Of a stretch of DNA of 64,000 bases, positions 20,095 through 44,894 are shown piece after piece. Under the pieces are notes generated by a model, which did no database searches, was not told where the DNA came from, and saw nothing but the letters and a program-made list of their open reading frames with translations. The position numbers were made by a program, and so were the translations under genes. The DNA lies in assembly GCA_964035575.1 (NCBI GenBank), contig OZ037833.1:1-64000 (forward strand), read 5' to 3'. The DNA is from Rhynchopus sp. YZ270_cl-10. Taxonomy: Eukaryota. Position 1 is the stretch's first letter, and the number at the start of each line of letters is the position of its first letter.

Positions 20095-21321
20095 TTATTG
20101 GGAATAGTAGAATGGCACGGTGCTGTATGGATCATGTCGGTACACTGGCTGCTGTTGAGAAGTTGGCTTTATGTTGAACCCTATGTGATTGAGAAAACGA
20201 GGTAGGCTGTGCTTCTGAGCTGTGCTACTTGTGCTAGGTTTTATGTGCTGACTGTCGTGGCAGAGAATTCTATCAGAAGAAGCCAGGCCAATACGCGTAG
20301 GCTGGCCGGGCCCTGCTGTCCACACAAATGTTTTATCGTGTCTGGAGAGAAACCGCATGAGAAGAGAGTGGCTTGGGAATAGAGAGTTTGTGAACACTTC
20401 AAATCCATTCAACTTCTGCAACAGCTCCTTCTGGGACATGGGGCCTTTAGAGAGCATTCCTAGCAGGGCCTTTTTAAGATTTTCCTCATCTTCACGTTGG
20501 ACCTTGCTTCTCGACTTGTCTATTTTGCGCACTGAAGAGAGCGGTGTTCCAAAGAGGCAGACACGTGCATCAGACTTTTTTATCTGTGGAGCAAGACAAT
20601 TTTCAACAATATCCTCATCAGAATAGTGGAACAGAGAGAAGTCCTCAGGATGGGCCCTGAGAAATTCCTGCCAGGCACCACCGTAGCATTTCCCCACAAC
20701 GTTGTCGTAGAGTGGACTCTCCTTCGCTTTGTTGCTCAGCACAATAGACCCCAGAGAACCTCTGCACACATTCAGCCGTGGGTTTTCCAAAATAGCTCTG
20801 ACCTCTTTAACAAGTAGCCTCTCTGCGGACCCTTGCTTCACATTGTCAATTGGCATGTGTTGAACCTTCACTGTGAATGTAGTTGGGTGGTATGCAATGT
20901 AGTGGCCAGAGTGTGATGCATCCTGAGATTGCACGAGGTTCCCAAGATCAACTTCAAAGTCCTCACGGCCTTCACAGGTACATTCCAGGGTTGCATTCCA
21001 TGCACTCCTAGGAAGCGGATCATGAGCTGTGATAAAGAGAGCGTCAAGGCCAAGCCCGCCCTTTTCCCCAGTGATGTTTATGTCTTTATTAGCTGACACT
21101 GTGAGTGTTTCTTCTTTCCCTGGGAGCGGGAGGTTGCAACGTATAAGTTGTAAGCCATTCAGCAGAACTGATGCGTATCCTCGCTCCACTGGATTGGTGG
21201 GTCCTGCAATGTCAGTGATGTTGAAGCAACTGCTGGGTTCAAAGTCTGAGTCTGTGTTTCCTATGCTGCCTCCTGCTGTTGATATGACAGAATACTGCCG
21301 AACAGAATGTACTGAGCTCAT
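20095..21321 (-). CDS. Hypothetical 408-aa protein, possibly RNA-binding (OST-HTH/LOTUS- or winged-helix-like segments) with a C-terminal YRHDPY motif
   Basis: Long non-repetitive ATG-initiated ORF after an AC-rich leader. Segments YGGAWQEFLRAHPEDF and LLGMLSKGPMSQKELLQKL are suggestive, and the protein ends PVYRHDPYSTVPFYYSQ. The domain assignment is tentative. Confidence 0.75.
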   Translation of the reverse strand: MSSVHSVRQYSVISTAGGSIGNTDSDFEPSSCFNITDIAGPTNPVERGYASVLLNGLQLIRCNLPLPGKEETLTVSANKDINITGEKGGLGLDALFITAHDPLPRSAWNATLECTCEGREDFEVDLGNLVQSQDASHSGHYIAYHPTTFTVKVQHMPIDNVKQGSAERLLVKEVRAILENPRLNVCRGSLGSIVLSNKAKESPLYDNVVGKCYGGAWQEFLRAHPEDFSLFHYSDEDIVENCLAPQIKKSDARVCLFGTPLSSVRKIDKSRSKVQREDEENLKKALLGMLSKGPMSQKELLQKLNGFEVFTNSLFPSHSLLMRFLSRHDKTFVWTAGPGQPTRIGLASSDRILCHDSQHIKPSTSSTAQKHSLPRFLNHIGFNIKPTSQQQPVYRHDPYSTVPFYYSQ

Positions 21322-21871: not shown

Positions 21872-22543
21872 TTACACCCAGTGTGCAGCAAATCTGTTTA
21901 GTGCCATGAAGGTTATTTCAGATGCTGAAGAGGGGGATAGGGTATCAACACTAGATTTGCTGCTCGATGTGCTGCCTTCCTGCCAGGTGTCTGCATAGGA
22001 TTCACTGCTGGAGCAAGTACTGGAAGGGCAGAATGATGCAAGGTTCTCCAGATCAAGTTCTCGGCATATATGGATGTTGATACAACGCTCCCCCCATTTG
22101 CATCTCTTCAATTTGTTCAGCCCACAAATCCTGTTCTTTTGTACAATAATTTTGTCCCCCCGGTGCAAAAGCTCCTCCAAACCTCTTGTACTGCTGAAAT
22201 TGCTCACAGAGAGCAATGCTATGTTGTCCTTGCCCTTCAACATAACACATTTTTTGCTGGCCCATTTTCCGGAATGAAGCGCGCAGCACTGGCCCGCCAT
22301 TTCATCACGAAGTCTGTCCACAGCATCTGGACTCACATGTAGTTGACGGCATGTCTTCTGTGACTTACATTTCCCTCTGTGAAATAGTATGCACACATTC
22401 AGTGGTCTATTTCCAAGGGTTCCTTGAAGATATGCTGTTCGTCCTTTCGTTTCACATGTTTCTGAAAAATGGAATACAACAAGCTGGGCACGGTTTCCAG
22501 GGTCTTTTGCTTCTATCACTTTGCCTTCTAACAGTGTGTTCAT
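21872..22543 (-). CDS. CCCH zinc-finger protein (223 aa), kinetoplastid ZC3H-like
   Basis: Two C-x7-C-x5-C-x3-H motifs (CILFHRGKCKSQKTCRQLH and CGLNKLKRCKWGERCINIH) and a Ser-rich tail. Confidence 0.8.
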   Translation of the reverse strand: MNTLLEGKVIEAKDPGNRAQLVVFHFSETCETKGRTAYLQGTLGNRPLNVCILFHRGKCKSQKTCRQLHVSPDAVDRLRDEMAGQCCALHSGKWASKKCVMLKGKDNIALLSVSNFSSTRGLEELLHRGDKIIVQKNRICGLNKLKRCKWGERCINIHICRELDLENLASFCPSSTCSSSESYADTWQEGSTSSSKSSVDTLSPSSASEITFMALNRFAAHWV

Positions 22544-22827
22544 GTTGTGTTCAACAAAAATGTGTGTTAGGCTGTGTGGTGTTTGGGTATGGAAGATGAG
22601 GGGTGCCTGGGTGGTTTACAAAACCAAGAGGGGAGTGTGAGGTAAAGGGAGATGCACTTTGCCAGTCTGTTCTGTGAGTGTGCTGTTTACCCCTGGACAC
22701 ACCCAATAATATTTCCACGCAATAGCAAACCCGTAATAGTAAATATAATATTGTTAATATATGTTCCAATTACTATTCCTAGATGCACTCCTACTCACTG
22801 ACGAACCAAAAAGGCATGAATTTGAGG

Positions 22828-23117
22828 TATACACAATATACACAGTATACACAGTATACACAGTATACACAGTATACACAGTATACACAGTATACACAGT
22901 ATACACAGTATACACAGTATACACAGTATACACAGTATACACAGTATACACAGTATACACAGTATACACAGTATACACAGTATACACAGTATACACAGTA
23001 TACACAGTATACACAGTATACACAGTATACACAGTATACACAGTATACACAGTATACACAGTATACACAGTATACACAGTATACACAGTATACACAGTAT
23101 ACACAATATACACAATA
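22828..23117 (+). repeat. (CACAGTATA)n 9-bp minisatellite, about 32 copies
   Basis: Read directly. It accounts for the YTV/YTQ/CIL pseudo-ORFs. Confidence 0.96.
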
Positions 23118-23452
23118 TTGCTAATATATGTTCAGATTACTATTCCTATGGTGACGGCACTCCTACAAACTCACTGACCAATAGAAAACACCGTAAAAAC
23201 AGCAAAATTGACTACACAGGTTTACGAGTTGACTGGTTAGTTGTATGTATTGGTGTTTCCCTGCGGTGCGGGATGTGTGTAGGAGGGAATGCCACCTTAC
23301 CCAAATTTAATTTTAGGCATGAGATGGATGAAGATGAATTAGATTTTTGGTCTGTAGCCCAGGAGATACCATTTTTGTGGTCCTACTTAATATATTTCTC
23401 TTATTCACTCCCTTCCCCCAGAAAATCCTACGACACAAACAAAAACAACAAC

Positions 23453-24343
23453 ATGAAGCCTACACCGTGGAGTGCTGCTCTTCAGTCCACCAATCTCCTT
23501 GCGGAAGCCCCGATGCTCCTTCCAACTCCGAAGCCTGAAGAAGAGTCTAATTCACCACCGGATGATGAGCTCCCGGATGACGTTGTCAGAAACAATGTGC
23601 TTAATGAGCCGGTTGATGATAGTCTTGCAGGTCTGATTGCGGATCTACACATCCAGATGGAGAAAACTAAAGAAATGTGCAGGCAACTCACAGAAGCTCA
23701 CAACATAATCCGTTCCGCCCACAGCTTCTACACATCACTGGTATGTAATATTACAGCTTACAGTTATTACTTTCAAATTCTTCTTAACACAGCATGAACG
23801 TGCGATTGAACACATAGTGGAACACCAGAACAAGAGGAGAAGGGTTAGTACACCAAAGGTATAATGACTATTTGGTTTTATTCAATTAGCATTATTTGCA
23901 AATACAATTATTAATTACAGAACAATGCGAGGCCACAGGATGCCAGAACGCTTGAGACCCCCACACCAGAGGCCCCAGCCGCCCCCCCAGCCGTCCCCCC
24001 AGCCGTCCCCCCAGCCGCCCCTCCAGCCGTCCCCCCAGCCGCCCCCCCAGGCACCCCACCAGGCACCCCCCAGGTCACCACCCCTCTCTCTCCTTGGGAG
24101 TGCGAAACATGCTGTCGGACCTTCAAAAAGTCCTCAGCATTAATTAGCCACATGCAAGTACATGAGGAGAAGAAAACCAAAAGGGCTTACAAAAAAAGAT
24201 CACAAGTGACCACCCCCACAACGGTTGAGACCGCCACACCAGAGGCCCCAGCCACCCCCGTAGACACCCCCCAGGTCACTGCCATCCCACTCCCAGAAAT
24301 CACCATCCCTTACGAGGATGATGATGATGAGGAATATTTTTAA
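23453..24343 (+). CDS. Three-exon gene (23453-23740, 23793-23858, 23921-24343), 258-aa Pro-rich protein with one C2H2 zinc finger and an acidic tail
   Basis: Two AT-rich phase-0 GT-AG introns (23741-23792, 23859-23920). The spliced frame stays open and yields WECETCCRTFKKSSALISHMQVH, a KRRR basic patch, and the end YEDDDDEEYF*. Confidence 0.8.
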
Positions 24344-24842
24344 GAAATTGTCAATATTTTTTCCAGTAAAATTGCTTTTTTTGTTTTTCGTTTATTCCGT
24401 TCAGTAGTCGTAGTATTTGAGTCCCGGGCTTGTTTTCCCTCACTTCCTTTTTCCTCTGTGTCTACGACACGTTCTGTACTTCAAAAAAACACATCCATCC
24501 GTAAGTCGAAAAAAAAGGAAACAAAAATATAAATAAAAAGTCCACACCTACAAGGCGAGCGTTTTGGCAGGCGTTTGTAAGGACAGCCAATAGACTTTCA
24601 TCTGAAACAGAAGTGGTGTGGAAACAAACAACTTTTATTTTTTCCCCTCCCATTTTTTGTCTTTTGAACCACGAAAAAAGAGAAACTGTGGCGATTAACT
24701 TTTTTTTGTTTTCCGTTTTATTTGTATATTTTTCCAGACACAGAATATCAGATACAATAAAAAATGGAAAATTTCTTTTTTTTCTGTAATAACAAAGTAT
24801 ATTTTTATTTATCAGCAGAAGGAAATAACACACACATAAACT

Positions 24843-25328
24843 ATGACGTTCAACCCAATGTGGCATGAGATACAGTCTAATCTGCTAGAAGGAGAGACAG
24901 CTATTGACCGTCCGGATCTGGTGCACCGCATCTTTTACCTGAAGGTGAAGGAGCTTGTTAATTTTTTAAGAGAAAAAAATGTTCCTGGGGATCACATTGC
25001 AATGGTGGTGGTGGCTGAGTACCAAAAGAGGGGTCTGCCTCATGCTCACGCAATTCTTTGGAACAACAACAAAACTTCACTGAAGAACCCTTTAAATGTG
25101 TATCACATCGTACAACTCCCTGGACCAGCACACCCAAATATCTACAAAGCTTTCAATCAGTATCTGATGAACAACAGGTGGATGGTTCATTACAATCTTC
25201 TCCTGAAATATCGGCGCCACACACACAGAAACAATGAGGAAGTGCGCGGGATCCTTGTTGTTAAGTATTTGTTTAAATACTTGTTCAAGGAGGAGAAGGA
25301 GCCTATGACAGGTCTATTTATTCAATGA
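24843..25328 (+). CDS. Stand-alone compact Helitron-type HUH Rep domain (161 aa)
   Basis: TFNPMWHEI (motif 1), DRPDLVHRIF, VAEYQKRGLPHAHAILW (HUH motif 2) and KYLFKYLFK (tyrosine motif 3). Confidence 0.8.
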   Translation: MTFNPMWHEIQSNLLEGETAIDRPDLVHRIFYLKVKELVNFLREKNVPGDHIAMVVVAEYQKRGLPHAHAILWNNNKTSLKNPLNVYHIVQLPGPAHPNIYKAFNQYLMNNRWMVHYNLLLKYRRHTHRNNEEVRGILVVKYLFKYLFKEEKEPMTGLFIQ

Positions 25329-25634
25329 TTTGTGTGGTAGAGTTGTGACATTGGATAAAAAAAGAAAACGAAATACAAAATAGCGATAAGTGGGGATATG
25401 TCTTTGTGGGCTTACGGGTTTTCGGGTTTTGTTGTCAGTTATTTTTTGTTTGTTATTTGTTTTCCTAATTTTTCCTACTCCCCCCATTCTATTTGAATAT
25501 TTTGTCAGACACAGAATATCAAATCACATGATACAACAACAAAAAAGGAATAACCTATTTTTTAAATAATTCTGAGAACATTTTTATTCATCACCAGTCA
25601 TTACATAACAGAAAAACATAACACACCGTAAACT

Positions 25635-28415
25635 ATGTTTGAAGGGGACGACTGCGCCAGAGAGCCCCCATTGAAGAGCTGGTCTAGCTACCTGTCGGAC
25701 ATGCGTGAATCTTTGCGGCTCTCGGCTGAAACATCGCGAATGCAGTTAGAAGAGATACATTTTTCTTGCAGCCAGTACGAAAGCTTTACACCACACACTC
25801 AATATGACGTCTGTGAGTGGTGTTTAAAAAGATATCAAAGGACAGAAAAACATTATCCACATTGCCTCTTCAGGTACATGCACATTACGCACATTGCAAA
25901 ATGCCGTCTTGCGTACGTTATTGCTTCTATTAGAACAATAACTAATAAAGCTTCGTTCAGAGATCTCTTTGCTGTACATCCTGAGTTAGAGTCTCGCTGG
26001 AACTGTAGTCTTGCTTCTCTCAAAAATACTGACAAGAGGTACATCAGGATTCTTGAGGACGAAAAACGTGATGCCATGCAAGGACTTTCTCCGCACATTT
26101 TTGGATTAGTAGAGAACTGTGCAAATGCCATCTGCGAAAGATGGCTTGAGAAGAGGTCCGATACGCTAAGAAAAAACGGGACCAGCTGTCAAGCATTAGT
26201 TGCAGAATTCGAAAATAGAGTTTCTACTTCGGAAATGTGTGGGAGAAGTCTTGACCCAAGCCTCCACTCAGCTGCAATGAAGCTTGAAGACTACACAAAT
26301 GGATGCGTGTCTTATGCTGACATTGGGGGGATGAATTCTGTCTGTAGAAAATGTGGTGCAAAGCTCTTCTCTGGTGAGGTCCGAGGAGAAGGGAGATATG
26401 GAATTTGCTGCAACAGAATTAAGGAGAGAGACATCCCTGAACCAATTGAATTTGAGAACGACGACCACAAAAGATTGTTCTCGGATCAAACGTTTCTTAA
26501 GAATTCATACCGCCTGAATTCTTATCACCAGATGGCCAAGGCATTGCATACCCCCCACAAGTTGTTTTCCAACACACGCGGAATACACAACATAGTTGTC
26601 AAAGGAAAAGGGGTGAAGAAAATTATGGGCCTGTCTGACGATGCGGAAACAAGAAACCAAACCTGGTTTGTTGGTGGATACAACGAGCAGGACCGCGCCT
26701 TGAAAGGCTTGCAAGAGATGGAGAGGATCCCAGAACTGGAACGCGACACAACCCTCTACCAGGACATCATGACCATGCTGAAAGACAATTGCTATGTCAG
26801 GATGTTCAGGAGAGCCTCAGTTCTGATGGACAGTGCCGAAGAGAATACACATGTGGCCATCAACTTTGACGATCTGCGAGGACCTGAGAAGACGGGACGG
26901 GAGTACGCAAACGCCGCTGCAGAAGATGAATTGCGGGCTGTATATACTGTCAGTACTGGAACAGAGGATCACAAATACGCAGAAGGTTGGGGCCGGCAGC
27001 AGTACAGCGTTATTATGCAGGGAGAAGCTGAAGGTCAAGGTGAAGGAAGCGATAAATACAGCAGAAAGATATCAGATTTTGATGCCAGGTTCGAGCCACT
27101 GTGTTTTCCCCTGATACATGTGTGTCCAAAAGACAGTACAGGTTGGAGACACAGTCGAAAAGATGAAGCAACGCCAAACCCCTACAGTGGTGTGTCAGCA
27201 CAGGAGTATGGCTGCTTCCACCTGTTTTCACGGGCGACCGAGAAGAACCCAGATGGGGAACCAGGGCCTGCACTGATAGGGCGCAAGCTGACCGAATACT
27301 TCTTCCTTCAGCTTGGCATCCGTGCCATTACGCAACGCATATCTTACCACAGCCAGCAGATAGTAAAGAAATATGCAACAAAAGAATTCCTCGAAGAGTC
27401 CCATGTTACGACAGTAGTGGAAAACCGTCGCGTCACCACACACGATGCGACCAATGACACTACAACAGCCACCACCACCCTCTATGCCAGCTACCCGCGT
27501 GGGAAGAGAGCAAGAATTCAAGATCTCAACGATTCACTTGCGTTGAAGGCCCGTCTTGGCTGCCCCGATTATTTCCTGACCATGACAGCCAACCCACATT
27601 GGCCAGAGATTCTCAGGGAGCTGCGTCCAGGAGAAAGACCCTGTGACAGGTCTGATCTTGTGCACCGAGTGTTTAACCTCAAGATGGATCAACTTGAGAG
27701 AAAGTTGAAAGAGAATGCACTCGGGACGTACCAGGCAATGGTTCATGTGGTGGAGTACCAGAAAGGACTCCCCCACCTGCATCTTCTTCTGTGGGTTTCC
27801 AAGGAGCATAAGCCGAAGTCTGCAGCCATTTTTGACATGGCGGTGTCGTGCCAGTTGCCTGATCCCGAAACGCAAGAAGAGCTATACAACTTGGTGTCGG
27901 AGCAGATGATGCACACCAAGTGTGATACTGTGCCCAGTGCACGATGCAAGGTGCCCGGCCCAGACGGCAACGCACGGTGCAAACAGCACTACCCAAAAAA
28001 CTTTCGGGACGATACCCTGGCAACTGAGACAGGAATGTACAGCTATGGTATGCGGCCTAATAATGGGAGAACAAGCGCTGTTGCGGAAAAAGACCAAGAG
28101 CGGGCAAGAAAGCTGGCCACAGAAGGGAAGGTACACCCCAGCTGTAGAGACAACCGCTATGTTGTTTCCTACAACATAGTTCTTCTCACCCAGTTCATGA
28201 GCCACTTCAACATAGAGGCTGTTGGATCTCCAGTTGTCATCAGATACCTCTTCAAGTATCTGTTCAAGGACGATGAGTATGCTAATGTGTCAGTTTCAGC
28301 CAACGACGGAGAAAAAAACAAAACGGATGAGTGCATGAGCTATCTGACAGGCATACATATTGGGTCACTTGAGGCTATTGGATACCTTCTCGGAACGAAG
28401 AATGAGATACATTGA
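25635..28415 (+). CDS. Helitron RepHel, N-terminal part (Zn motif + HUH Rep), ending at a frameshift
   Basis: GGMNSVCRKCGAKLF...CC, YFLTMTANPHWPEI, VHVVEYQKGLPHLHLLLW, YVVSYN and YLFKYLFK. Confidence 0.93.
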   Translation: MFEGDDCAREPPLKSWSSYLSDMRESLRLSAETSRMQLEEIHFSCSQYESFTPHTQYDVCEWCLKRYQRTEKHYPHCLFRYMHITHIAKCRLAYVIASIRTITNKASFRDLFAVHPELESRWNCSLASLKNTDKRYIRILEDEKRDAMQGLSPHIFGLVENCANAICERWLEKRSDTLRKNGTSCQALVAEFENRVSTSEMCGRSLDPSLHSAAMKLEDYTNGCVSYADIGGMNSVCRKCGAKLFSGEVRGEGRYGICCNRIKERDIPEPIEFENDDHKRLFSDQTFLKNSYRLNSYHQMAKALHTPHKLFSNTRGIHNIVVKGKGVKKIMGLSDDAETRNQTWFVGGYNEQDRALKGLQEMERIPELERDTTLYQDIMTMLKDNCYVRMFRRASVLMDSAEENTHVAINFDDLRGPEKTGREYANAAAEDELRAVYTVSTGTEDHKYAEGWGRQQYSVIMQGEAEGQGEGSDKYSRKISDFDARFEPLCFPLIHVCPKDSTGWRHSRKDEATPNPYSGVSAQEYGCFHLFSRATEKNPDGEPGPALIGRKLTEYFFLQLGIRAITQRISYHSQQIVKKYATKEFLEESHVTTVVENRRVTTHDATNDTTTATTTLYASYPRGKRARIQDLNDSLALKARLGCPDYFLTMTANPHWPEILRELRPGERPCDRSDLVHRVFNLKMDQLERKLKENALGTYQAMVHVVEYQKGLPHLHLLLWVSKEHKPKSAAIFDMAVSCQLPDPETQEELYNLVSEQMMHTKCDTVPSARCKVPGPDGNARCKQHYPKNFRDDTLATETGMYSYGMRPNNGRTSAVAEKDQERARKLATEGKVHPSCRDNRYVVSYNIVLLTQFMSHFNIEAVGSPVVIRYLFKYLFKDDEYANVSVSANDGEKNKTDECMSYLTGIHIGSLEAIGYLLGTKNEIH

Positions 28416-31400
28416 CCCAAGTGTCACCAGACTTGATGTTCATCTTGCAGGCCAGCAAAGGCTGTACTACTTTCCTGGCAAGGAGGCAGAGGCGCTTGAC
28501 AAGGCCACGGACACAACACTCACAGCCTGGTTTGCTGCAAATAGCGACGCAAAACGTGACCCGTCTTCCAAGTACCAGGGAATACAAACCCTAAACTACA
28601 TCACTGTTCCTGAATACTTTGCCTTCTCCAGAGATAAAGCAGAGTGGACCCTGAGGAAAAGCTACGTGTACTGCCCCAGGACTGAGTCGCTTGTCACAAC
28701 GGACAGATCACGAGCTGCAAAGTCCCATCTTCTGGCTATTGGTCGCCTGTACAGAACCCCTGTTTTGGATAAGGAGCTCCAGGCTCTGCGCACGATCCTC
28801 ATGGTGAGAAAAGGACCCACTAGCTTTGATGACCTGATGACTGTAGAAGGGAAAAAGTGCGAGTCCTTTACGGATGCAGCAAATGAAATGGGGCTCCTTC
28901 AGGGTGGTAAACTTGTGAAGCTTACACTTGTGGATGCAGTCAAAACCACTGTGTCAGGAAGATGCCTCAGGTTTACCCTTGCTGTTCTACTCAACTCCTT
29001 TGCTATTCCTCCTAATGACATGAAAGAACTCTGGAAGACATACAAGGTGGAGCTGTGCAAGCGTCCTCTGAAGCAGGGAGAGACTGCACCGGATGAGGAG
29101 GCTACGGTATCTGAGCAGGAGGAAAATGAAGCACTGTTGGATATTCAGAATGTGTTGAGAAACATTTGTGGGTCGGATGTAAAGCTAGAAGTCTTTGGAC
29201 TTCCAACACCAACTGCTGCTGTGAGGAGTGCGAACGATGGAGTATCTTGGGTTATGAAAGATGAAATCTACAACATGGAAAAGCAGTGGCAGGAGTGGGA
29301 GAAGATTGAACCTAAGCTCAATACAAAACAGAGGGATGCAGTTCAGCGTGTTCAACTCTCTGTGACTCAGGGCAAAGGCGAGATGTTTCTGCTTCAGGGT
29401 GCTGCAGGGACTGGAAAAACGTTTACCTACCAAGCCATGCTCAGTTGGTGCAGAAGCCACAGAGGGGTTCCGGCGCAAGGTGACACGCATCGTCCAAACA
29501 TTGCCCTTGCAGTTGCGAGCTCTGGCATTGCAGCAATGCTCCTGCCTGGAGGAAGAACATCACACAACAGATTCAAGTTTCCTCTTGATCTGTACCCAGA
29601 TGACCACCACTCTGTCTGCAAACTGACAAAAGAAATTGAGGATCTCATCCGCGCAACGGATCTCATTGTCTTTGACGAGGTGGTTATGGCAAACAGGGGC
29701 CATATAGAACTTCTCGACAGAACCTGCAGAAAGGTTACCGGAAAGGCCATGTGGTTTGGTGGAATCACTGTGGTTCTTGGTGGAGATTTTAAGCAAATTC
29801 TTCCTGTCACTGAGGGAGACAAGAGTGCCACGCTTAAAAACTGTCTGCATACTTCTCCTCTCTTCCAAAACATGACTATGCTGTCCCTTATCGAGATAAT
29901 GAGGCAGAAGGATGACAAAGAATGGGCTACCTACCTGGGAACCATTGGTGATGGGTCGCGCAACGATAGAGACAGTTCCATATCTCTCCCAATAAACCTC
30001 TACCGAAAGAATTGTGGGAATTATGTTGTACCTGATGATTTAATCACCCACGTCTTCCCTCTGATTGGGGAAGGTGTAGTTGGAAATGGCATGATCCTTG
30101 CACCTACTAACAAAGCTCAGAAGGCAATGAACAACATTTGCCTCAAGAGGCTGTGTGGGAAACAAAAAGAAGTACTCCATGAGTTCCAGCTGACAGGGAA
30201 GGACACATGCACAGAGGAGTCTGTTGAGGGGGAATCTGCCATTGACTCAGACGTAATGAATGCGTACCAGCAGACAGGCATACCTGACCACTGCATCACT
30301 GTCAAGGTTGGTGCTCCTCTAATGTTGCTCAAAAACCTCAACCCACCAAAGGGTCTCTGCAACGGAACGAGGTTTATTGTGACTGGCGTGACACAGCTCA
30401 ACATTCAGGGTATCATTGTGGGAGACCCTCAAAGAGTTGGAATGGCAGTGAACATCCCCAGAGTTAAGAACACTCCTGACGAGAAGAAGGCTGGCTTCAG
30501 CATGCAGCGCGTCCAGTTTCCCGTCGCACTGTCATTTGCCTCTACAATTAACAAGTCTCAGGGACAGACCCTCGATAGGGTTGGACTCGACCTCACAGAG
30601 TCACAGTGCTTTGCACATGGGCAGTTGTACGTTGCTCTGAGCAGATGCCCAAAGGCAAAGCATGTCAAGGTTGCAGTGCCTCTGAAGACAAGGACCGCAG
30701 GAAACAGAAGGATAGTTGTGGAGCCGTACAGAGTGTCAAACCCTGTATACAAGGACATGCTAAAATCTGTTTCTGACCGTGGACTCGAGGGCATCTTTAT
30801 GCAGCTGACTGAAGCAGAAGAGGCCATGCTACAGAGTTACCACGTCATGACTGACAAAGAGTACTCTGAACAGACCCACAGACAAGCAAAGATGCCTCCA
30901 CCATCTGATGACCAAAAATTCTGGGACCCCATGCCAATGCAGTGCGAGAGCATTCAGTTTGAAGATGCTGAAGATCTTGTCTATGTAGCCAAAAAGAGGA
31001 AGAGAGATCCAGAAGAGAAGTCTCGTAAGAAGCGGAAGAAAAATAACCCTACATCAGCAGAAACAACAACAGCACAAAAGCCGAAGCTCTCTATTACCAG
31101 GGTTTTGGGGGATGGTACTTGCTTTTACCATGCAGTAGACCAGTCTATTACAAAGAGGATAGGACAAGGGAATCAACTCAGAAGAGAATTGGAATTGTTT
31201 GTTATGCAGAACAGCACTACAATAAAACATCATCCTCTTATTGTACCTGAAAACGCTAACACCGTATCCTCGATTGTAGGCACCTACAACGCCCTTATGA
31301 ACAGGATAACTGGCAGGATTGATGGGACGTACGCAACATCAGACTATGCAGAACAGATTGAGTTTGCCTTGGTGAGTCTCTTAAAACGTGTTCTAATAAC

Positions 31401-31653
31401 TATTGTCAAAATGAACCAAGATAACAAGCCCTCATCTTTTCACTTTTTGGGGAACAACTTGTCTACTGACCAGGTTCTTGCTAATATTCCTGCAAAAGAC
31501 AGGATTATTTTAATACATACTGCAAACCCTGATCATTTTAATATTGGTACAGGGTCTCCTGAACATGAATTGGAAACACACAAAAATGGTTTGGAACAAT
31601 TGCATAGGGGATTTCCTAATGAGATTTTATATCAAGTTGATTGGGAGCTGTGA
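28402..31653 (+). CDS. Helitron RepHel, C-terminal part (Pif1/SF1B helicase + OTU-like cysteine protease)
   Basis: VTRLDVHLAGQQ linker, Walker A GAAGTGKT, VASSGIAAMLLPGGRTSH, IVFDEV, LGGDFKQILPV, LCNGTR, QFPVALSFASTINKSQGQTL and HGQLYVALSR. OTU motifs are GDGTCFYHAV...DHFN. Confidence 0.95.
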   Translation: MRYIDPSVTRLDVHLAGQQRLYYFPGKEAEALDKATDTTLTAWFAANSDAKRDPSSKYQGIQTLNYITVPEYFAFSRDKAEWTLRKSYVYCPRTESLVTTDRSRAAKSHLLAIGRLYRTPVLDKELQALRTILMVRKGPTSFDDLMTVEGKKCESFTDAANEMGLLQGGKLVKLTLVDAVKTTVSGRCLRFTLAVLLNSFAIPPNDMKELWKTYKVELCKRPLKQGETAPDEEATVSEQEENEALLDIQNVLRNICGSDVKLEVFGLPTPTAAVRSANDGVSWVMKDEIYNMEKQWQEWEKIEPKLNTKQRDAVQRVQLSVTQGKGEMFLLQGAAGTGKTFTYQAMLSWCRSHRGVPAQGDTHRPNIALAVASSGIAAMLLPGGRTSHNRFKFPLDLYPDDHHSVCKLTKEIEDLIRATDLIVFDEVVMANRGHIELLDRTCRKVTGKAMWFGGITVVLGGDFKQILPVTEGDKSATLKNCLHTSPLFQNMTMLSLIEIMRQKDDKEWATYLGTIGDGSRNDRDSSISLPINLYRKNCGNYVVPDDLITHVFPLIGEGVVGNGMILAPTNKAQKAMNNICLKRLCGKQKEVLHEFQLTGKDTCTEESVEGESAIDSDVMNAYQQTGIPDHCITVKVGAPLMLLKNLNPPKGLCNGTRFIVTGVTQLNIQGIIVGDPQRVGMAVNIPRVKNTPDEKKAGFSMQRVQFPVALSFASTINKSQGQTLDRVGLDLTESQCFAHGQLYVALSRCPKAKHVKVAVPLKTRTAGNRRIVVEPYRVSNPVYKDMLKSVSDRGLEGIFMQLTEAEEAMLQSYHVMTDKEYSEQTHRQAKMPPPSDDQKFWDPMPMQCESIQFEDAEDLVYVAKKRKRDPEEKSRKKRKKNNPTSAETTTAQKPKLSITRVLGDGTCFYHAVDQSITKRIGQGNQLRRELELFVMQNSTTIKHHPLIVPENANTVSSIVGTYNALMNRITGRIDGTYATSDYAEQIEFALVSLLKRVLITIVKMNQDNKPSSFHFLGNNLSTDQVLANIPAKDRIILIHTANPDHFNIGTGSPEHELETHKNGLEQLHRGFPNEILYQVDWEL

Positions 31654-31923
31654 CCATACAAAAAAAGTAATAAAAAGAGAAAAATGAAAGAAGTGGTAAC
31701 AATCGGGGGTATGAAAACGGGTTGGGTTTGGTGGGTATTTTTTGGGATTGTGGGTTTGGGGGTACTATTAGTTTTGAACAAAATACAAATGAAGCATGAA
31801 ATAGGAGAGAACAAAAACAAAGGAACATTATTTATTTATTTCAATTTTTCTTCACACCCCCCACAAACATACACACACCCACAGAGTATCCACAATATGT
31901 CCCTCAATAGAGTGTCCCGACCA

Positions 31924-31980
31924 AAAATCCCAACCAAAAATCCCTGTATTTTCAATACAGGGATTTTTGGTTGGGATTTT
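31924..31980. other. Perfect 27-bp-stem, 3-nt-loop hairpin downstream of RepHel
   Basis: AAAATCCCAACCAAAAATCCCTGTATT-TTC-AATACAGGGATTTTTGGTTGGGATTTT. Confidence 0.93.
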
Positions 31981-32286
31981 GGCTCTCTCTTATGGACAGA
32001 ACGTAATTTATGGACACATTTGTCAACATTTCTGTCCATAAATCCCAAAATGGAAAAAAATATTTTTTCAAATGGCTTACTGTAGTGGCTTCAGCGGAGC
32101 AATTGCGTCGAAGTATGGTGGTCGTGGGCCCAAAAGTACGTAGTAGACATTTAGTTACTTGACATACTGAGGTCTGTGGGTATCCTTATAGGGTCATACA
32201 CAGGGAATTGTACAGTGCATATAAACTCACAAACCACAGGTTACCTGCAAACATCAATACACATACTGCAATAGGTTAACATAACA

Positions 32287-32528
32287 GTGCAAGGATGCTG
32301 TGCAAGGATGCTGTGCAAGGATGCTGTGCAAGGATGCTGTGCAAGGATGCTGTGCAAGGATGCTGTGCAAGGATGCTGTGCAAGGATGCTGTGCAAGGAT
32401 GCTGTGCAAGGATGCTGTGCAAGGATGCTGTGCAAGGATGCTGTGCAAGGATGCTGTGCAAGGATGCTGTGCAAGGATGCTGTGCAAGGATGCTGTGCAA
32501 GGATGCTGTGCAAGGATGCTGTGCAAGG
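32287..32528 (+). repeat. (GTGCAAGGATGCT)n 13-bp minisatellite, about 18 copies
   Basis: Read directly. Confidence 0.97.
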
Positions 32529-32533
32529 CCACT

Positions 32534-32860
32534 CGGGTGCACAGGGTGCCGATCGGGTGCACAGGGTGCCCCCAAAAAATCGGGTGCACAGGGTGCCAAA
32601 AAATCGGGTGCACAGGGTGCTTTTTAGCCGGGGCTTATAACGTGGGGGGCACCCTGTGCACCCGATTGCAAACCCGTATTGGCACCCTGTGCACCATATT
32701 TTTGGGGGCACCCTGTGCACCCGATTTTCAGGGGCACCCTGTGCACCCTTATTTTGGGGGCACCCTGTGCACCCGATTCAGAGCCCAAAAGGCACCCTGT
32801 GCACCATTTGGGGGCACCCTGTGCACCCGATTTGGTACCACTATGTCACCATGTGCACCC
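32534..32860. repeat. Cluster of GCACCCTGTGCACC motifs in fold-back arrangement (4 reverse, then about 6 forward)
   Basis: GGGTGCACAGGGTGC x4 at 32535-32620, followed by GGCACCCTGTGCACC copies at 32648-32829. Confidence 0.9.
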
Positions 32861-33795: not shown

Positions 33796-34152
33796 TGTGT
33801 GCTGTGTGTTCTGTGAAAACTGTGTGTGGGACCCAAAATACCTGTAAAAGTCTGTATATGAGGTTCTTGGGGTTTGGGCTAAAGTGGTTTGTGTTGTGTA
33901 CTATACTTCCCTGCTGACAGAGGGTGTACTGTGTACTGTGTACTGTGTACTGTGTACTGTGTACTGTGTACTGTGTACTGTGTACTGTGTACTGTGTACT
34001 GTGTACTGTGTACTGTGTACTGTGTACTGTGTACTGTGTACTGTGTACTGTGTACTGTGTACTGTGTACTGTGTACTGTGTACTGTGTACTGTGTACTGT
34101 GTAGGACTGCCCTCAGAATATGTTTTCCTTGGTCAGAGGCTCCATACAGGTG

Positions 34153-34157
<5 letters not shown>
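33796..34157 (+). repeat. Left copy (362 bp) of the long direct duplication flanking the retrotransposon; contains (TGTGTAC)n
   Basis: Matches 46057-46411 except for one extra heptamer unit, and abuts the poly(T) at 34158. Confidence 0.95.
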
Positions 34158-34206
<49 letters not shown>

Positions 34207-35241
34207 GGTGTTGTTCAACTTAGCCCTAGGCTCGCTTTTTTTTTATCTACATCCAGTGACAGAGGGGGTACTTACTAGTCAAGCGAGTATGTAAACAGCT
34301 AGATGTCCAGACAAGGGCACTTTACTATTGTACTGGCAAGACAGTGCCTGAAAACACAGTTAGTGGCACTAAAATAGAAAGCATCTGGGACAACTACAAC
34401 CAACACTTCCCTGCAAATAAGCAAAAGGGTCGTATGTGAGTGCAATTTTTCCCAAAAGGAAAAGGGGAGGGGATGGGACGGGAGGGTTGCTCTGTCTACC
34501 GGTGTAGTTTTATTTTGCTTTGTCTTGGGGAGGGGAGGGGAGGAGAAGGAGGGGATTGAGTGAGCCGTTTCCTCTGTAACACACAAACAAATAAATAGTG
34601 GAGCACACTCTAGGGTGGCTACACTAATACAACCAAGTTTTCAAATAAAAAGGAAGTTCCATAATCTTTTTAGTAGTTTTCTTTTTGGTGAAAATTTTTG
34701 AGAACTTCTGTAAGTGTGACCTGACCCGACTGACTGACACCAAAGGGGAAAACAACAATAACGCACAACAAAATCAACAACAACAATGGTGGGTCTCGTG
34801 CTTACCTGTGGTGGTTTTGAAAAATGAAAAATTTAAATTGACCTTCACAAGGTAAAAATGAAAAACTAAAAGAGTGAAAAAAGAAACTCAAAGGACAAGA
34901 GTTCTGTACAAACTCTACTCTACTGCACAATCTATAAAAGTGGCCCAATGGCTCCTGATGCCACTGGCCTGGCTCTTAGACAGGTCTTACTCCGAGACTG
35001 CCCTCTACCCTCGTCCAAGGGCTAAGGGCCGTCGCTGGGGTAGACCCGTCCTAGCCAGCAGCCAACCAAAAATATTAACAAAAAGGAAGGGGGGCGGAAA
35101 GGGGGGAAAGGGGGGGCAAACCCCAAAGGATGAAAAGAACAAAAAACACAAAATAAAAAGGGTTAAAAATAAACATGGGGCAAACTGTCATTCTCTACAC
35201 GCTTCTACACACACACTCTCACCCTCTAACTCTCTAACTCT

Positions 35242-38199: not shown

Positions 38200-38777
38200 G
38201 TGTTGTTCAACTTAGCCCTAGGCTCGCTTTTTTTATCTACATCCAGTGACAGAGGGGGTACTTACTAGTCAAGCGAGTATGTAAACAGCTAGATGTCCAG
38301 ACAAGGGCACTTTACTATTGTACTGGCAAGACAGTGCCTGAAAACACAGTTAGTGGCACTAAAATAGAAAGCATCTGGGACAACTACAACCAACACTTCC
38401 CTGCAAATAAGCAAAAGGGTCGTATGTGAGTGCAATTTTTCCCAAAAGGAAAAGGGGAGGGGATGGGACGGGAGGGTTGCTCTGTCTACCGGTGTAGTTT
38501 TATTTTGCTTTGTCTTGGAGAGGGGAGGGGAGGAGAAGGAGGGGATTGAGTGAGCCGTTTCCTCTGTAACACACAAACAAATAAAAAGGAAGTTCCATAA
38601 TCTTTTTAGTAGTTTTCTTTTTGGTGAAAATTTTTGAGAACTTCAGTAAGTGTGACCTGACCCGACTGACTGACACCCAAAGGGGAAAACAACAATAACG
38701 CACAACAAAATCAACAACAACAATGGTGGGTCTCGTGCTTACCTGTGGTGGTTTTGAAAAATGAAAAATGAAATTGA
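38156..38777 (-). mobile_element. 5'-truncated copy (3' UTR end + poly(A)) of the same retrotransposon family nested in the host element
   Basis: 38199-38780 is near-identical to 34206-34844 apart from a 54-bp deletion and a few substitutions. It has a 43-nt poly(T) at 38156-38198 and is flanked by CCTACACACATA at 38144-38155 and 38778-38789. Confidence 0.92.
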
Positions 38778-41700
38778 CCTACACACATAGCACCCCGCTC
38801 CAGAAAGGAAGATGCGACCTTTTTCTGGTACGCCACCGCAATGCTCTCCCGGATGCGCAACTCTGCCGACCCTGTTAGGTGCGACGTCTGTCCCGTCGTC
38901 AGGCCTCCAAGCTGCGCAATCAAGAGGTTCGCCTCGTCGCCTGCACCCCCGAAGGCTTCAAACACAATAGGGGAGAACTTGGTGTTGATCTTGTTCAAAT
39001 CCCGCTCGTGCTTCTCCCGTTTGACCTGGCCCTGGTTCTTCGCCGACCAGCCCACAAACTTCGAGGCCCCTGTTCTGTAGGAAGGCAAGGTGGGGCACAC
39101 GTGGGTGATGTCCAAACAACGAGGTCCATTTTCCGCCACTCCTACTGGGAGGTAGACATCGCCTGGCCGCTTCTTAGACTCCAACTCCACTCGCACGGTC
39201 TCCTCCAAAGCAGGGTCCAAGCCCGCCCCTTGAGCCGCTCTGTACACCGAATCCCGCAAGGCGTTGTGGCGGGCGACGCGGTGTTTGGAGTAGGGGCAGC
39301 CAAAGGTGTGGTCGCCAAAGGAGTCCATGACAACCCTTTTCTGCCCCCCCTGACATGCCGAGCAAGTCGTTCCCTCCGCATGGATGGCCACCCCTAGTCG
39401 GAAACGGGTCACAACCGCAAAATCCGCTGAAGACATCTGGTTCCTTGCTGAGGGTGTCGCCGTGAGGTACGTCCCGGAAAGCGGCAGGAGAAGGGACTTC
39501 ATCCGTGCTCGGTCTCGCATGCAGAGCTGTTGCATCAACTTGTCTGCCTGGGCGTCAATCACCGCAGATGACAGACTCTGCTGCTCCAGGATCTTCTTCG
39601 GCTGGGCCCTGTCCACGTGAAACGCCACCGGTACCCTGGAGTTGTACTCCTCAGCTGCGCTGTTCCATCTCTCCTCATCCCAGGTGAAGGCAGGGTCCAA
39701 GGCCTGCGACAGTTGCAGGTTCCCTGACTGAGAGGCGAGGGACGCAGCCGTCCGATGGTCCACTGTGCGACGGATACCCAGCCCCCCAAGCGCCACAGGA
39801 AGCGCCGCCTGCGCCCTTGCCAACTCCGGCAGCGCCCCATCCGGGTCATGCAGAAGCGCAGCCAGGCACCTGTCGATCAGGTCGTCAAAAGCCGTCAGGT
39901 ACTCCGCGCACTGTGGGATCCCCCGCATGTAGAACACCATGCGGCAGTAGCCTTCGCAGTATCTCAGTACGTAGAAGGCTGCCTGGGAGTCCCCGAGGTC
40001 CACAAGGGCTTCCAGGTTGCGGCGGGAATCGTCCACCTTCCGGGCCATGTACTCCTCGCAGAATGCCGCAGACCCAATGGGGATGCCCAAGAAATCGAAC
40101 CCATCCACATCCAACAGCCGGAACCCGCCTTCACCCATGGCGTCCTGTCCACCCTCGGTCAACGTGAACCCCACCGCCTTGAGCTCCTCCGTGGAGACGC
40201 CACCAGTGGAGATGAGCTCACACTTGTTCGCGTTCACCTCCAACCCCAGTTCGGAGCTACGAGTGCGCAGAACCTGGTACGCCTCAAAAACCGCCTTAGG
40301 GGACCCCCGCAGAGAGCCGTCATCGAGGTACCACAAAGTCCCATCCAGGCCTGGGTGCCCCTTCAGCTCTAGCGCCATCTGGTGGATGGTCAGGGAGAAG
40401 AGAAGCGGGCCCAAGGGATCTCCTTGTTGAGCTCCGCGCTGTGACCTTATGGTATCTCCACCATAAAACAGGCTGGAGGGCTCCAGGTAACACCATCGCA
40501 CCCATGGGGCCAGCTCGGGGAGGTTCGCGTCGACCGCTCTTAGCATCGACAGGCGGTCTACGCAGTTGAACGCGTTACGGTAGTCAATTTTCAAAATGAC
40601 TTTACCTTTTCCGCGGTTGCGCACGGCGTACTGCGAGATAACATCAGTCGCCACTGCCGCCCCCCTTGCCGTTGCCGCCCCCACCTGGTTCCCTCGAAGA
40701 AGAAGCGTCCTAGCAGGCACCCGCACTCGCGCCGACAGAATCTTTCCCACCAGTCTGCGGAGAGTGTCCCCAACCGCAATCGGTCGCACGTCCTCCTCCA
40801 GGCCCGGCCCCTTTGCAGGCTTCCGGAGAGCCACCAAGTTAGCGCCGGCGAAGAACTCAGCCACCTCCACTGGAGCATTTCCTCGTGCCAAAGACGTCAA
40901 CACTGCGGCCAGCGCTGCCAAAGTGCCCTTAGCCCGCCTCTGTAGGCAAAGTGTACGAAGGTGCGCGCCCGTCACGTTCGAGGGACCCGCCGCCGATGAC
41001 TTCGGCATGCTCCGCAGGGCCTTCATCACCTCCACCACTGTCACCGGTGGGACCTCCTGAGGCTGGGGCCAATCCGCCTGCTCCAGGGCCTTGGAGTCGG
41101 CAGCGGCTGGGTGCTTCGTCTGAAGCTTTTCCATCGTCGCCGGTGTCTGTGGGGCGAGGCCGTCGCTGGTAGCGCAAGACATGGCCTGGCTCGGGAGTCC
41201 TGCTCTCGCTTTGGCGATGGTGCGCTTCCGTTTCCCTTCGTCAGTGTCTTCATCCGACCACCCAGAGGGCCTTGGCTTCCGCTCCTCTACCGTTTGCTCC
41301 CACAGGGCGACATACTGGCCAGCCTTCCAAGCCTCCAAGTCCTTCCCCCAGGTGCTCGTCAAACGTCGCTCCTGGTCCTTGCCCCCTCGTTCTGTCCGTG
41401 TCCGGTGCAACACTGTGAAGAACAGTGCAAGGCGCTTCCAGGCCACCTCGTCCTGGTACTCCAGGATGTCCATGAGGACCCTCAGGAAGAGCTCGCTGTA
41501 CAGCTGTAGGTGTTTGTCTGGGCACCCGCCCTTCAGCTGGATCCTGGTGGTCCCCATGACTTCAAAGGAGGGGAGGTCATCCTGATCTGTCAGCATTCCT
41601 CGACTGGAGGGAGACGGAGCGGTGAAGCCTTCTTCGCCAAAGTGCACCGTACAGGTGTTGCAGACCTCCTTGCTCTGCGGCAATAGCATGTCGCACTGAT

Positions 41701-44700
41701 CGTTCGCACAGCGCGACATGCCCAAGTGGCCCAACAGCTCGTCGGGGATGTACGCCCCATCGGCCTGGTGGCGACGCATGTGCTGCAGCAAGCCCTTACG
41801 AGACAGGCCCCCGACCGCATCACTCGAAGACAAAATTCCCGCTCTGCATCCATCAAAGGGGCAGAACACCCGATCCGCATTGATGTGTCCCAGCTTGGTA
41901 GCCAGGGGGGCGGTGGTGGTGGTGTTGGTGGGGATGATGCCATCCAAATGCGCTGTGTCCAGCACTGCCTGCCGAGCCTCCTTCCTCATCTTCTCTGCCA
42001 TCCCCTCCTTGGTCTTCCCCACCTCCGGGACAAGCTCCACTGCCTCAAAGTGAGAGTCACAGAGAGCGATGACGACCGTGGGAAGTTTCGCTTGGAAGCT
42101 CTCCGCGTACGACTTGGCGACTCTTTTGCTACCAGGGGTGATGCGCACGAGGGGGTTCTCTTCCGATGCCTGCACCACCACGATGTTGATGCGGGATGCT
42201 GTCGCGGTGAGCTGAAGCCCCAAGTGGTTGAGGTGGGCCTCGCCGGTCACACCATTGGCAAACTCCGTCATGGCCTCCTGCGACCCCAGCACCTGCACCA
42301 GGCGGTTCGACACCTCCACTGCTGTGTCATATAGCTGCTTGCGCATTGCCCTCACGTCCGGCTGCGTGTCGTGGTCCCAGAGGTGTAGTGCCACATAACC
42401 ACAATCATTAGTAGACACGTTGGGGATGCGTTTAGCTCCAAACTTCGCCAGAGTCGCGTCCACAGACACCGCCTGCTCTGTATACGCAGGAGCGTTCACG
42501 TTTGCGCACCCACCGGTCAACGCAAACGGGGACAAGCTTACCGGGTGCTCCGGATCAGCAGGGGCAGGGCGCAGGTCCCAGGGCGTCACCGCTCGCCACA
42601 ACAACGACAGCAAGACCAGTAGGGACACCGCCAGCATGCCAAATGCCATCCCGATCCTACGAGTCCACCTGCGTGCTGCCACACGGCGCACCTCCAAGAG
42701 AAGAACCCAGCCAAGTGGGCGCGCGACGCCGACCAGTGCCACAAAACCCGCCAAACAACCACCTGCGGACCATGCAACCCACACCCACTCGGCTGCACGC
42801 ACCGACAACTGACCCACCCCCATCACACTGGCTCTCACCAAGCTGGCAGCCACTCGGATCCCTCCGGTCCATCGGTGCACTCGCTCGCTCGCCCCTTCCA
42901 GCCACCGCCACCCCCTGCGTGCGCGGCACAGTCCCCGCAGCAGACCCACCCCCAGCACCTCCGCGTCCCGAAACAGCGCACAACCCAAAGCATGTGGCGC
43001 TGACCTCCCAAGCTCAGACCCCACAAAAACCAGAACCCAGATGGCCACACACTGCAAAGCACCTCTCAACGCATCGGCGACCCTGATCCTGCGGAAAACT
43101 GGGTGCGCTGTCGGGGAGGGCGGACGATTGCAGGGCGCCTTGCGCCGACGGAGCCTGCCCGCCTGTGACTTGGTCCAGTTCAAGGACCGGTGTCCTCGTC
43201 GCGTCCTCCTGGTCCTCCTGCCCACCAGCCACAAAATGAGATGACTGAGGGTAGGGGCGCGTCTGTCCTTCCACAGATCCAGGACCGCGAACGACACAAA
43301 CACTCCCCACTCAGGTGCCTCGGCTACCCAGCAGGGGTCAGGCTGACGCAAGGAGGTGAAGACCTCCCAGAGGTTGCACCACCAGTCGAACCAAAACTCT
43401 ATCTGTGCACACCCCTTTTGCCACACCCGCATCATCACACAGCCACTCTGTCCTTCTCGCCCCGCAAGGCTGACCCCGAACACCAGCATACCTCGCTCAC
43501 CACCCCCTAGGTTGTTGTCGCTGATGTTGTTGCTGCGTCTGCTGTTGATGTTGGTGCTGCTGTTGGACCTGCTGTTGGAACTGCTGCTGCAGAAGTCTTT
43601 GGAACTGCAGTTGAAACTGCTGTTGTGCCTGCTGTTGGAACTGCTGCTGGAACTGCTTTTGGAGACGCTGTTGGAACCGCTGCTGCAGAAGTCTGTGGAA
43701 CTGCTGTTGAAACTGCTGTTAAGCCTACTGTTGGAACTGCTGTTGGACCTGCCGTTAGAGCTGCTGCCGCAGAAGTCCTTGCTGATGAAACTGCTGTTGT
43801 GCCTGTTGCTGGAACTGCTTTTGGAAACGCTGTTGGAACTGCTGCTGCAGAAGCCATTGGAACTGCTGTTGAAACTGCTGTTGTTGAGCCTGCTGTTGGA
43901 ACTGCTGATGGACCTGCCGTTGGAGCTGCTGCCGCAGAAGTCCTTGCTGATGAAACTGCTGTTGTGCCTGCTGTTGTGCCTGTTGCTGGAACTGCTTTTG
44001 GAAACGCTGTTGGAACTGCTGCTGCAGAAGCCATTGGAACTGCTGTTGAAACTGCTGTTGTTGTGCCTGCTGTTGGAACTGCTGCTGGACCTGCTGTTGG
44101 AACCGCTGCTGCAGAAGTCTGTGGAACTGCTGTTGAAACTGCTGTTAAGCCTACTGTTGGAACTGCTGTTGGACCTGCCGTTAGAGCTGCTGCCGCAGAA
44201 GTCCTTGCTGTTGAAACTGCTGTTGTTGAGCCTGCTGTTGGAACTGCTGATGGACCTGCCGTTGGAGCTGCTGCTGCAGAAGTCTTTGGAACTGCAGTTG
44301 AAACTGCTGTTGTGCCTGCTGTTGGAACTGCTGCTGGAACTGCTTTTGGAAACGCTCGTGGAACTGCTGCTGCAGAAGCCGTTGGAACTGCTGTTTAAAC
44401 TGCTGTTGTGCCTGCTGTTGGAACTGCTGTTGGACCTGCTGTTGGAACCGCTGCTGCAGAAGCCTTTGGAACTGCTGGTGAAAAAGCTGTAGAGCCTGCT
44501 GTTGGAACTGCTGCTGTAAAGGCCTTTGGAACTGCTGCTGCTGCACACCAGGGGTGATACTGGGACCCCACCCAGGACTCCGAAGATTTCGTTTTTGCTG
44601 CTATCACAGTTGCAGCCACTGATGTGGTTGGGCATACATTGCCTCTTTTTGGGGATATCATGGGGGGAAGGGGGGTGTGGGTTGTTATGACAACAGTTCT

Positions 44701-44853: not shown

Positions 44854-44894
<41 letters not shown>

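Follow-up and report, generated by a model that had tools for sequence, protein, structure and literature searches.

A cut-down, rearranged Helitron Rep reading frame, apparently kept open by selection, beside the RepHel gene of a Rhynchopus contig

Helitrons are understood as rolling-circle transposons that work with one protein, RepHel, and we know of nothing on how these elements limit their own activity. We analyzed a window of 64,000 nucleotides (nt) from Rhynchopus sp. YZ270_cl-10 (contig OZ037833.1, positions 1 to 64,000), in which a Helitron RepHel gene is preceded by a small open reading frame (ORF) that we call the mini-Rep. This ORF lies at 24843..25328 on the plus strand, encodes 161 amino acids (aa; P0001), and is separated from the RepHel gene by 306 nt. 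Judging from alignments and domain matches, the mini-Rep is a cut-down, rearranged copy of the Helitron Rep domain, an HUH nuclease, and it is not credible either as a frame that survived by chance or as a nickase working alone. The reading that we favor, at slightly less than an even chance, is that the mini-Rep is a translated, fast-evolving, non-catalytic Rep fragment that would probably act as a modulator of RepHel.

The mini-Rep matches the Pfam family Helitron_like_N (PF14214) well above the cut-off (E=2.7e-18; 67.3 bits against 28.9 bits), with the match restricted to residues 1-72 and profile positions 118-191 of 191. When aligned to the adjacent RepHel ORF, mini-Rep residues 1-112 correspond to residues 650-762 (47/115 identical, 41%) and residues 110-152 to residues 839-881 (19/43, 44%), while RepHel residues 763-838 have no counterpart. 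The Cys-rich stretch of 66-76 residues between the HUH and Tyr motifs is thus missing, as are the zinc-finger N-terminal domain and the Pif1 helicase. The first-pass annotation of this DNA had described a 161-aa ORF with a complete EYQKRGLPHAH block, a shortened interval between motifs 2 and 3, and clear divergence from the neighboring Rep, and the alignments bear out each of these points. It had also credited the ORF with all three Rep motifs, which holds for the HUH block (residues 59-69; 25017..25049, plus strand) and for the two-tyrosine motif KYLFKYLFK (residues 141-149; 25263..25289, plus strand; aligned to residues 726-734 of the Helitron transposase Helraiser), but only in part for motif 1. 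Since M1 of the mini-Rep corresponds to M650 of the RepHel ORF (LTMTANP), a Met inside motif 1, half of the motif-1 strand is absent, and the window copy has MTFNP (24843..24857, plus strand) in place of the full xLFxTxTxNP strand.

The end of the mini-Rep has a different origin from its body. Its last 12 codons, which run to the stop, include a 25-nt piece (25291..25315, plus strand) that is 22/25 identical to positions 27629-27653 of RepHel and is read in a different frame, so that a scrap of Rep DNA supplies part of the tail. This tail junction was recovered both as repeat family D11 and by pairwise alignment, with a score of 35 compared to 16.0 +/- 2.1 (maximum 23) for 100 shuffles. The mini-Rep therefore contains three junctions: one from the leader to motif 1, one at the missing Cys-rich stretch, and one at the tail scrap. 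The remaining five frames of the same 486 nt contain 5-11 stops each. A translated search for further copies, as the first-pass annotation had proposed, was run within the window and returned only the mini-Rep and RepHel.

The mini-Rep and RepHel genes share a duplicated leader. The first copy (24713..24842, plus strand; repeat family D9 and alignment) consists of a T-rich tract, AG, and the 16-mer CAGACACAGAATATCA (24735-24750), and extends to TAAACT just before the ATG; the second (25484..25634, plus strand; repeat finding and alignment) precedes RepHel and has its 16-mer at 25506-25521. The 16-mer is exact at 24735 and 25506, and these are its sole matches in the window at up to 3 mismatches (0.26 expected). 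Family D9 relates the two leaders at 85% over 41 nt, and the regions at ~24713-24845 and 25484-25637 can be aligned through TAAACTATG with 130 identical columns of 267. The claim that a common leader stands upstream of both genes is therefore well founded, with CAGACACAGAATATCA occurring exactly twice within alignable flanks. Since the leader is ~74% identical between the two genes compared to 41% of residues in the coding parts, the mini-Rep looks like a leader and ATG joined to the middle of motif 1.

Downstream of RepHel, a possible third copy of the leader (31832-31900) reached a score of 30, where the highest shuffle score was 28, and has 4 mismatches in the 16-mer; we regard it as unproven. 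A T-rich tract followed by AG (near 24736 and 25507 in the two leaders) is no specific sign of spliced-leader addition, since short conventional GT-AG introns also occur in this genome; nearby, cis introns measuring 53-57 nt, of the form GTATG..YAG, were read by eye. An Rfam scan of the window gave 0 matches and thus no spliced leader RNA family. A trypanosomatid source, which the spliced-leader idea would imply, is not supported, given the short cis introns and the reported absence of DNA transposons from trypanosomatids (PMC12278014).

Next to these features of the window copy, relatives of the mini-Rep were sought in large protein collections. A word-indexed search of 5.8 billion proteins, with 33 candidates limited to called ORFs of 88-282 aa, gave 7 matches, of which 6 belong to the mini-Rep family (including P0001 itself). 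An exhaustive HMMER search of 1.84 billion representatives returned 3704 matches at E<=1e-3, only 2 of them below 1e-30, and both of these are mini-Reps. Neither a full-length parent of the mini-Rep was found among the HMMER matches, the others being ordinary Helitron Reps at no more than 48% identity, nor was the DNA of relatives confirmed in a metagenome scan (151 pattern matches, 0 confirmed). The family comprises six clusters with 18 distinct proteins and 41 contig occurrences, and falls into three structural forms. The S form (6 variants, 10 occurrences) starts with MTFNP like the window copy. The L form (6 variants, 13 occurrences) has ~40 extra N-terminal residues with a full motif 1 (DLFFTIKFNP), and one L-type protein, P0160, covers positions 111-190 of the Pfam Helitron_like_N profile; in 5/6 L variants, the HRNNEEV segment, counterpart of the conserved HINVE strand in the alignment, is missing. 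The X form (6 variants, 18 occurrences) either has unrelated sequence in place of the first third or lacks that third altogether, and 4/6 variants have HAN in place of HAH. All 18 variants end at the same stop, and KYLFKYLFK is invariant in 18/18.

We used equal contig sizes to infer linkage, bearing in mind that different contigs can happen to be of equal size. Among the 15 of 29 RepHel cluster members listed, 9 of 13 distinct contig sizes equal those of mini-Rep variants, and 10 of 17 distinct mini-Rep contig sizes equal those of relatives of two host neighbors (ORFs at 20095-21321 and 21872-22543), including one contig of 41,984 nt. Since many of these contig sizes coincide, the mini-Rep, RepHel, and the host neighbors are likely inherited together at one locus, on roughly two dozen contigs from closely related genomes.

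Several observations on the S and L variants suggest that the mini-Rep frame is under constraint. Because the collection lists ORFs without splicing, as seen from P0232 and P0236, which both continue across introns, we treat length differences between mini-Reps as genomic insertions or deletions (indels). Ten such indels were counted by eye among the 12 S and L variants (3, 3, 3, 6, 6, 6, 15, 18, 21, and 30 nt), and all are in frame, which has a chance of at most 1.5e-5 if one third of indels are in frame. Among the best 12 of 71 indels in contigs of other runs, those in coding DNA were -6 and -6 in the mini-Rep and -6 in RepHel, whereas 8/9 in flanking non-coding DNA were not multiples of 3 (Fisher p=0.018). 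The S and L tree carries at least 64 missense changes, for which neutral change would predict 3.2-3.8 stop-creating hits compared to 0 seen (P=0.02-0.04), and a premature stop was present in 0/12 variants. S and L ORFs occur on 23 contigs, compared to at least 21 and at least 19 for the two host neighbors among the members listed. P0232, an ORF extending into an intron that served as a control, varies in length between genomes (174, 194, 113, and 114 aa).

The same 12 variants show where the protein changes. Catalytic-motif columns are variable in 2/20 cases compared to 52/141 elsewhere (p=0.02), with 2/11 columns varying in the HUH block and 0/9 in KYLFKYLFK. We infer from these comparisons that selection keeps the mini-Rep frame open and, since related genomes keep the frame open, that the ORF is likely translated. 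The first-pass annotation had offered a decayed duplicate left open by chance as its alternative; this is unlikely given that 10/10 indels are in frame, premature stops are absent, and the stop is shared among the 12 S and L variants.

We then considered whether the mini-Rep could cut DNA by itself. Among solved structures, Helraiser was the sole match (7lcc_A, E=2.6e-20); the aligned parts, residues 527-625 and 692-734, represent 142/256 residues of its nuclease domain. The HUH motif (residues 59-69) and the two-tyrosine YxxxY motif (KYLFKYLFK) are both present; a complete nuclease domain corresponding to Helraiser 490-745 and folding into an HUH active site is not seen in the mini-Rep. In the modeling that the first-pass annotation had proposed, AlphaFold with a 71-sequence alignment placed only the half between motif 1 and the HUH hairpin with confidence. 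The Tyr helix stayed unplaced, and Foldseek gave 0 matches at E<=0.001 with the mini-Rep model. According to PMC4778049, the Helraiser nuclease domain as delimited by limited proteolysis spans residues 490-745. In that work, neither this domain alone nor the fragment 490-1486 could bind or cut single-stranded DNA (ssDNA), and the N-terminal 489 residues were needed. Since the mini-Rep has 142 of the 256 nuclease residues and no N-terminal domain, and since the Helraiser nuclease alone is inactive, autonomous ssDNA nicking by the mini-Rep appears unlikely by analogy and from the models. The earlier proposal of a second nickase is thus not supported, given the partial coverage of Helraiser, the missing N-terminal DNA-binding domain, and the unplaced Tyr helix.

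The alignments show the anatomy of the mini-Rep, in which a leader and ATG are joined at a Met inside motif 1 and followed by a helix, the HUH hairpin, the Tyr motif with no Cys-rich stretch before it, an out-of-frame Rep scrap, and a stop. Under the reading that we favor, this frame would be kept open by selection and translated, and the product, which would not nick DNA alone, would act as a non-catalytic modulator of RepHel. More speculatively, it may compete with RepHel or titrate something from it, as truncated transposases do. The mini-Rep may have a role alongside RepHel or in its regulation.

A number of results weigh against this reading, and most of them favor a neutral relic, in which an older, internally deleted and rearranged Helitron copy sits in or beside the present element and its functionless frame has not yet been hit in most lineages. 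We consider such a relic a serious contender, with a probability of roughly one third in our estimate. Against the contig-1518833 set, the mini-Rep shares just 75.5-89% of residues, as opposed to 96.0-97.2% in full-length RepHel and 96.3-98.3% in the two host neighbors. Variable columns within one form of the mini-Rep amount to 8-13%, compared to 2-4% in host proteins, 3.5% in RepHel, and 1.4-2% in RepHel's own Rep domain, so that the mini-Rep changes 2-8x faster than RepHel and the host neighbors, at about the neutral rate. Residues conserved among Helitrons outside the motifs are unprotected (12/35 vary, compared to 40/106 for the rest; p=0.84), and 9/13 of the best-supported substitutions in the coding sequence (CDS) are non-synonymous, near the neutral 76%, although these contig-mismatch counts are small and non-independent. 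Each form also misses a core element, namely half of the motif-1 strand in S, the HINVE-like strand in most L, and motif 1 with the helix in X, and these forms turn over among genomes whose RepHel is 96-99% identical. The X copies, without motif 1 and in 4/6 variants without a catalytic His, make up 18 of the 41 contig occurrences. The AlphaFold models are weak, with a mean pLDDT of 61.8 in the S form (63/161 residues <50) and 57.8 in the L form (94/189 <50) and the Tyr helix unplaced in both, although a weak model is not proof of misfolding. The three rearrangement junctions, including the out-of-frame scrap that gives the stop, a 3' half that in run X3 is 5-15x deeper than the 5' half, as for amplified debris, and an adjacent RepHel that is itself broken in the window all fit a relic as well. 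Survivorship bias is possible, since the relatives were drawn from called ORFs of 88-282 aa. What a relic does not readily account for is that all 10 S and L indels are in frame, compared to mostly 1-2-nt indels in the non-coding flanks; that no stop arose where 3.2-3.8 were expected; that one stop codon is kept in 18/18 variants, whereas the control P0232 changes length; that the 23 contigs with S and L ORFs are close in number to those with the host neighbors; and that catalytic-motif columns are conserved.

Two further explanations seem much less probable. A true second nickase would be a minimal HUH-Y2 domain that cuts or joins ssDNA at the element ends, alone or with RepHel in a two-Rep system; in the boldest version, a separately expressed protein of 160-190 aa would nick, join, or cap these ends. 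Its appeal lies in the conserved frame, in the HUH and YxxxY motifs as the least variable parts of the family, and in the S form, which by alignment to Helraiser keeps nearly all core elements except part of the first strand. The top rows of the Foldseek search were parvovirus and adeno-associated virus (AAV) Rep nuclease domains, which would agree with a nickase, although these weak matches (E=0.18-2) are not significant. We nevertheless consider a second nickase improbable given the 142/256 nuclease residues, the lack of an N-terminal DNA-binding domain, the inactivity of both Helraiser fragments noted above, and a Tyr helix that AlphaFold places in neither the S nor the L form. In addition, S, L, and X each miss a different core element, HAN replaces HAH in 4/6 X variants, and a two-Tyr Rep domain is already built into RepHel, at much higher conservation (2/174 columns vary). 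Least probable of all, in our view, is a role at the DNA or RNA level, in which the duplicated leader or promoter, or the transcript (e.g., as a source of small RNAs against the Helitron Rep), matters and the ORF is incidental. Such a role would agree with a leader whose two copies resemble each other more closely (~74%) than the coding parts do, with a contig, X6-24, that differs from the window at 16/280 nt in the upstream leader compared to 33/287 in the CDS, and with the most conserved stretches being those common to other Helitron Reps. The in-frame-only indels, absent stops, and fixed stop codon would be left unexplained.

Compared to known systems, the mini-Rep belongs to the same family as the Rep (HUH-Y2) of Helitron RepHel proteins such as Helraiser (PDB 7LCC), with the HUH motif and tyrosines spaced as Y727/Y731. 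It differs from these RepHel proteins in being a separate predicted product of 161 aa, and not part of a protein of ~2000 aa, with a partial nuclease and no helicase, and it has neither the zinc-finger N-terminus nor the Rep-Pif1 fusion that mark an autonomous RepHel. In its deletions and junctions, its use of the element's leader, and its head-to-tail arrangement with a full RepHel, it resembles deleted or non-autonomous Helitrons; text from PMC5148889 mentions tandem truncated Helitrons. Ordinary Helitron deletion derivatives decay, whereas the mini-Rep frame is open in roughly two dozen contigs and is apparently inherited with RepHel. Replitrons (PMC10288648) are eukaryotic transposons with a Rep HUH endonuclease and no helicase. 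Like a Replitron Rep, the mini-Rep comes from a eukaryotic mobile element and carries no fused helicase, but it is Helitron-type by sequence and adjoins a RepHel.

Truncated transposases and initiators serve as regulators in several elements, including the P-element KP protein, the Tn5 inhibitor, and phiX174 A*. As in these cases, the element here would encode a shortened version of its own enzyme, and the parallel would hold if the mini-Rep tunes the full-length protein. On the other hand, the mini-Rep is a separate, diverged gene (41% identity) and not a product of the same gene. Searches of open-access text brought up no account of a second, shortened Rep gene whose frame stays open beside RepHel in related genomes. 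If our reading is correct, the mini-Rep would be a candidate for a built-in Helitron regulator or a minimal Rep, and if a two-Rep system were true, a Helitron Rep core would work without its own N-terminal and helicase domains. If the mini-Rep is instead a neutral relic, the locus would still show internal rearrangement of Helitron copies, and it would call for caution, since a short ORF can retain its catalytic motifs without encoding an enzyme.

The neighboring RepHel gene (25635..31653, plus strand) encodes a Rep domain, a Pif1 helicase (PIF1 domain match, E=8.7e-49), and a weak OTU-like C-terminus, where the cysteine-protease match (30901-31650; E=0.005) reaches 17.7 bits and falls below the 23.3-bit cut-off. 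In the window, the gene is split into ORFs of 926 aa (25635..28415) and 1097 aa (28360..31653). An intact relative, P0178, is a single ORF of 2009 aa that is 99% identical across the 926-aa ORF and matches the second ORF at 1067/1098 positions; compared to P0178, the window RepHel is shifted by +1 near 28401, and the Arg of EYQKRGLPH is missing from it. The RepHel cluster has 29 members, and among the 15 listed, 7 are 2003-2017 aa and 8 are shorter. Only 2/174 columns vary in the Pfam-defined Rep segment of the 7 long variants, and by domain (P0178 and P0187-P0200), variable columns make up 14.6% of the N-terminal region, 1.1% of the Rep Pfam segment, and 4.0% of the helicase. RepHel is apparently at the same locus as the host neighbors in many assemblies, with conservation of 96-97% compared to 96-98%. 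As far as these comparisons go, the pattern suggests a Helitron transposase that is still selected or possibly domesticated.

We also looked for the ends of the element, where canonical Helitrons have a 5' TC, a 3' CTRR, and a hairpin ~10-20 nt before the 3' end. Upstream of the mini-Rep, a dispersed repeat with a sharp 5' boundary (24539..24632, plus strand) was delineated from contigs of other runs and is, tentatively, the likely 5' terminal sequence of a Helitron-type element containing the mini-Rep. Contigs of other runs begin matching at 24536-24538 after unrelated sequence (with loose ends in X3 and X5). One X6 contig follows the flank as far as 24538, where it departs from the window, and the sequence at the boundary near 24536-24541 reads ..AAAAAGTCCACACC. 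Depth at 24574 was 25,130 in X1, 24,846 in X3, and 50.6 in X6, compared to single-contig depths nearby of ~1,300-3,000, 1,261, and 3.3, respectively, making the repeat ~8-20x deeper. Contigs X3-8 and X6-23 bridge the flank and the repeat start (24314/24320 to 24565/24582) with ~3% mismatches, which also fits a locus inherited as one. Other copies of the repeat join 24632 straight to ~24700-24709, omitting 67-76 nt that are present in the window. ssDNA folding of 24480-24660 gave no notable hairpin (z=-1.2).

At the other end, a 3' CTRR terminus is not assignable from this single copy. A candidate 3'-end hairpin at 31919..31985 (inverted repeat I2; 32-nt arms, 94% complementary, 3-nt loop) begins 266 nt past the RepHel stop, and a second hairpin at 31990-32042, read by eye, has perfect 12-nt arms (TTATGGACAGAA / TTCTGTCCATAA) and is another candidate 3' signal. 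In run X3, depth over 25104-25440, which covers the 3' half of the mini-Rep and beyond, was 7,000-45,000 compared to ~2,300-3,700 for the 5' half; since the 3' half is far deeper, mini-Rep fragments are amplified elsewhere in the X3 genome. Long, perfect microsatellite-like arrays bracket the Helitron region at 22754-23145, 32235-32860, and 33880-34220, consisting in order of a 9-mer (ATACACAGT), a 13-mer followed by nested inverted GGGCACCCTGTGCACCCGAT repeats, and a further short-period array.

Other features of the window include a likely three-exon gene just upstream of the element (23273-24343, plus strand; from ORFs and a zf-met match), for which two GT-AG introns of ~53 and 75 nt were read by eye. 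A proline-rich last exon contains one C2H2 zinc finger (zf-met, E=3e-4), and relatives of its first-exon ORF share contigs with the mini-Rep. A protein-atlas search with the 408-aa neighbor was uninformative, with all scores <0.8. On the minus strand, a 2406-aa ORF at 38711-45931 has a reverse-transcriptase domain (RVT_1, E=4e-16) and is likely a non-LTR retrotransposon. An actin fragment at 49955-51397 (minus strand), which matches PDB actins at E about 1e-112, covers only actin residues ~93-315 and so lacks both terminal parts. It contains a 57-nt GT-AG intron along with several odd substitutions and is a pseudogene or captured gene piece. Lastly, a 3235-aa ORF that runs to the window edge (54290-63997, minus strand) has an HYR-like 4-Cys domain (whole-protein E=1e-13) and possibly encodes a large surface or adhesin-like protein.

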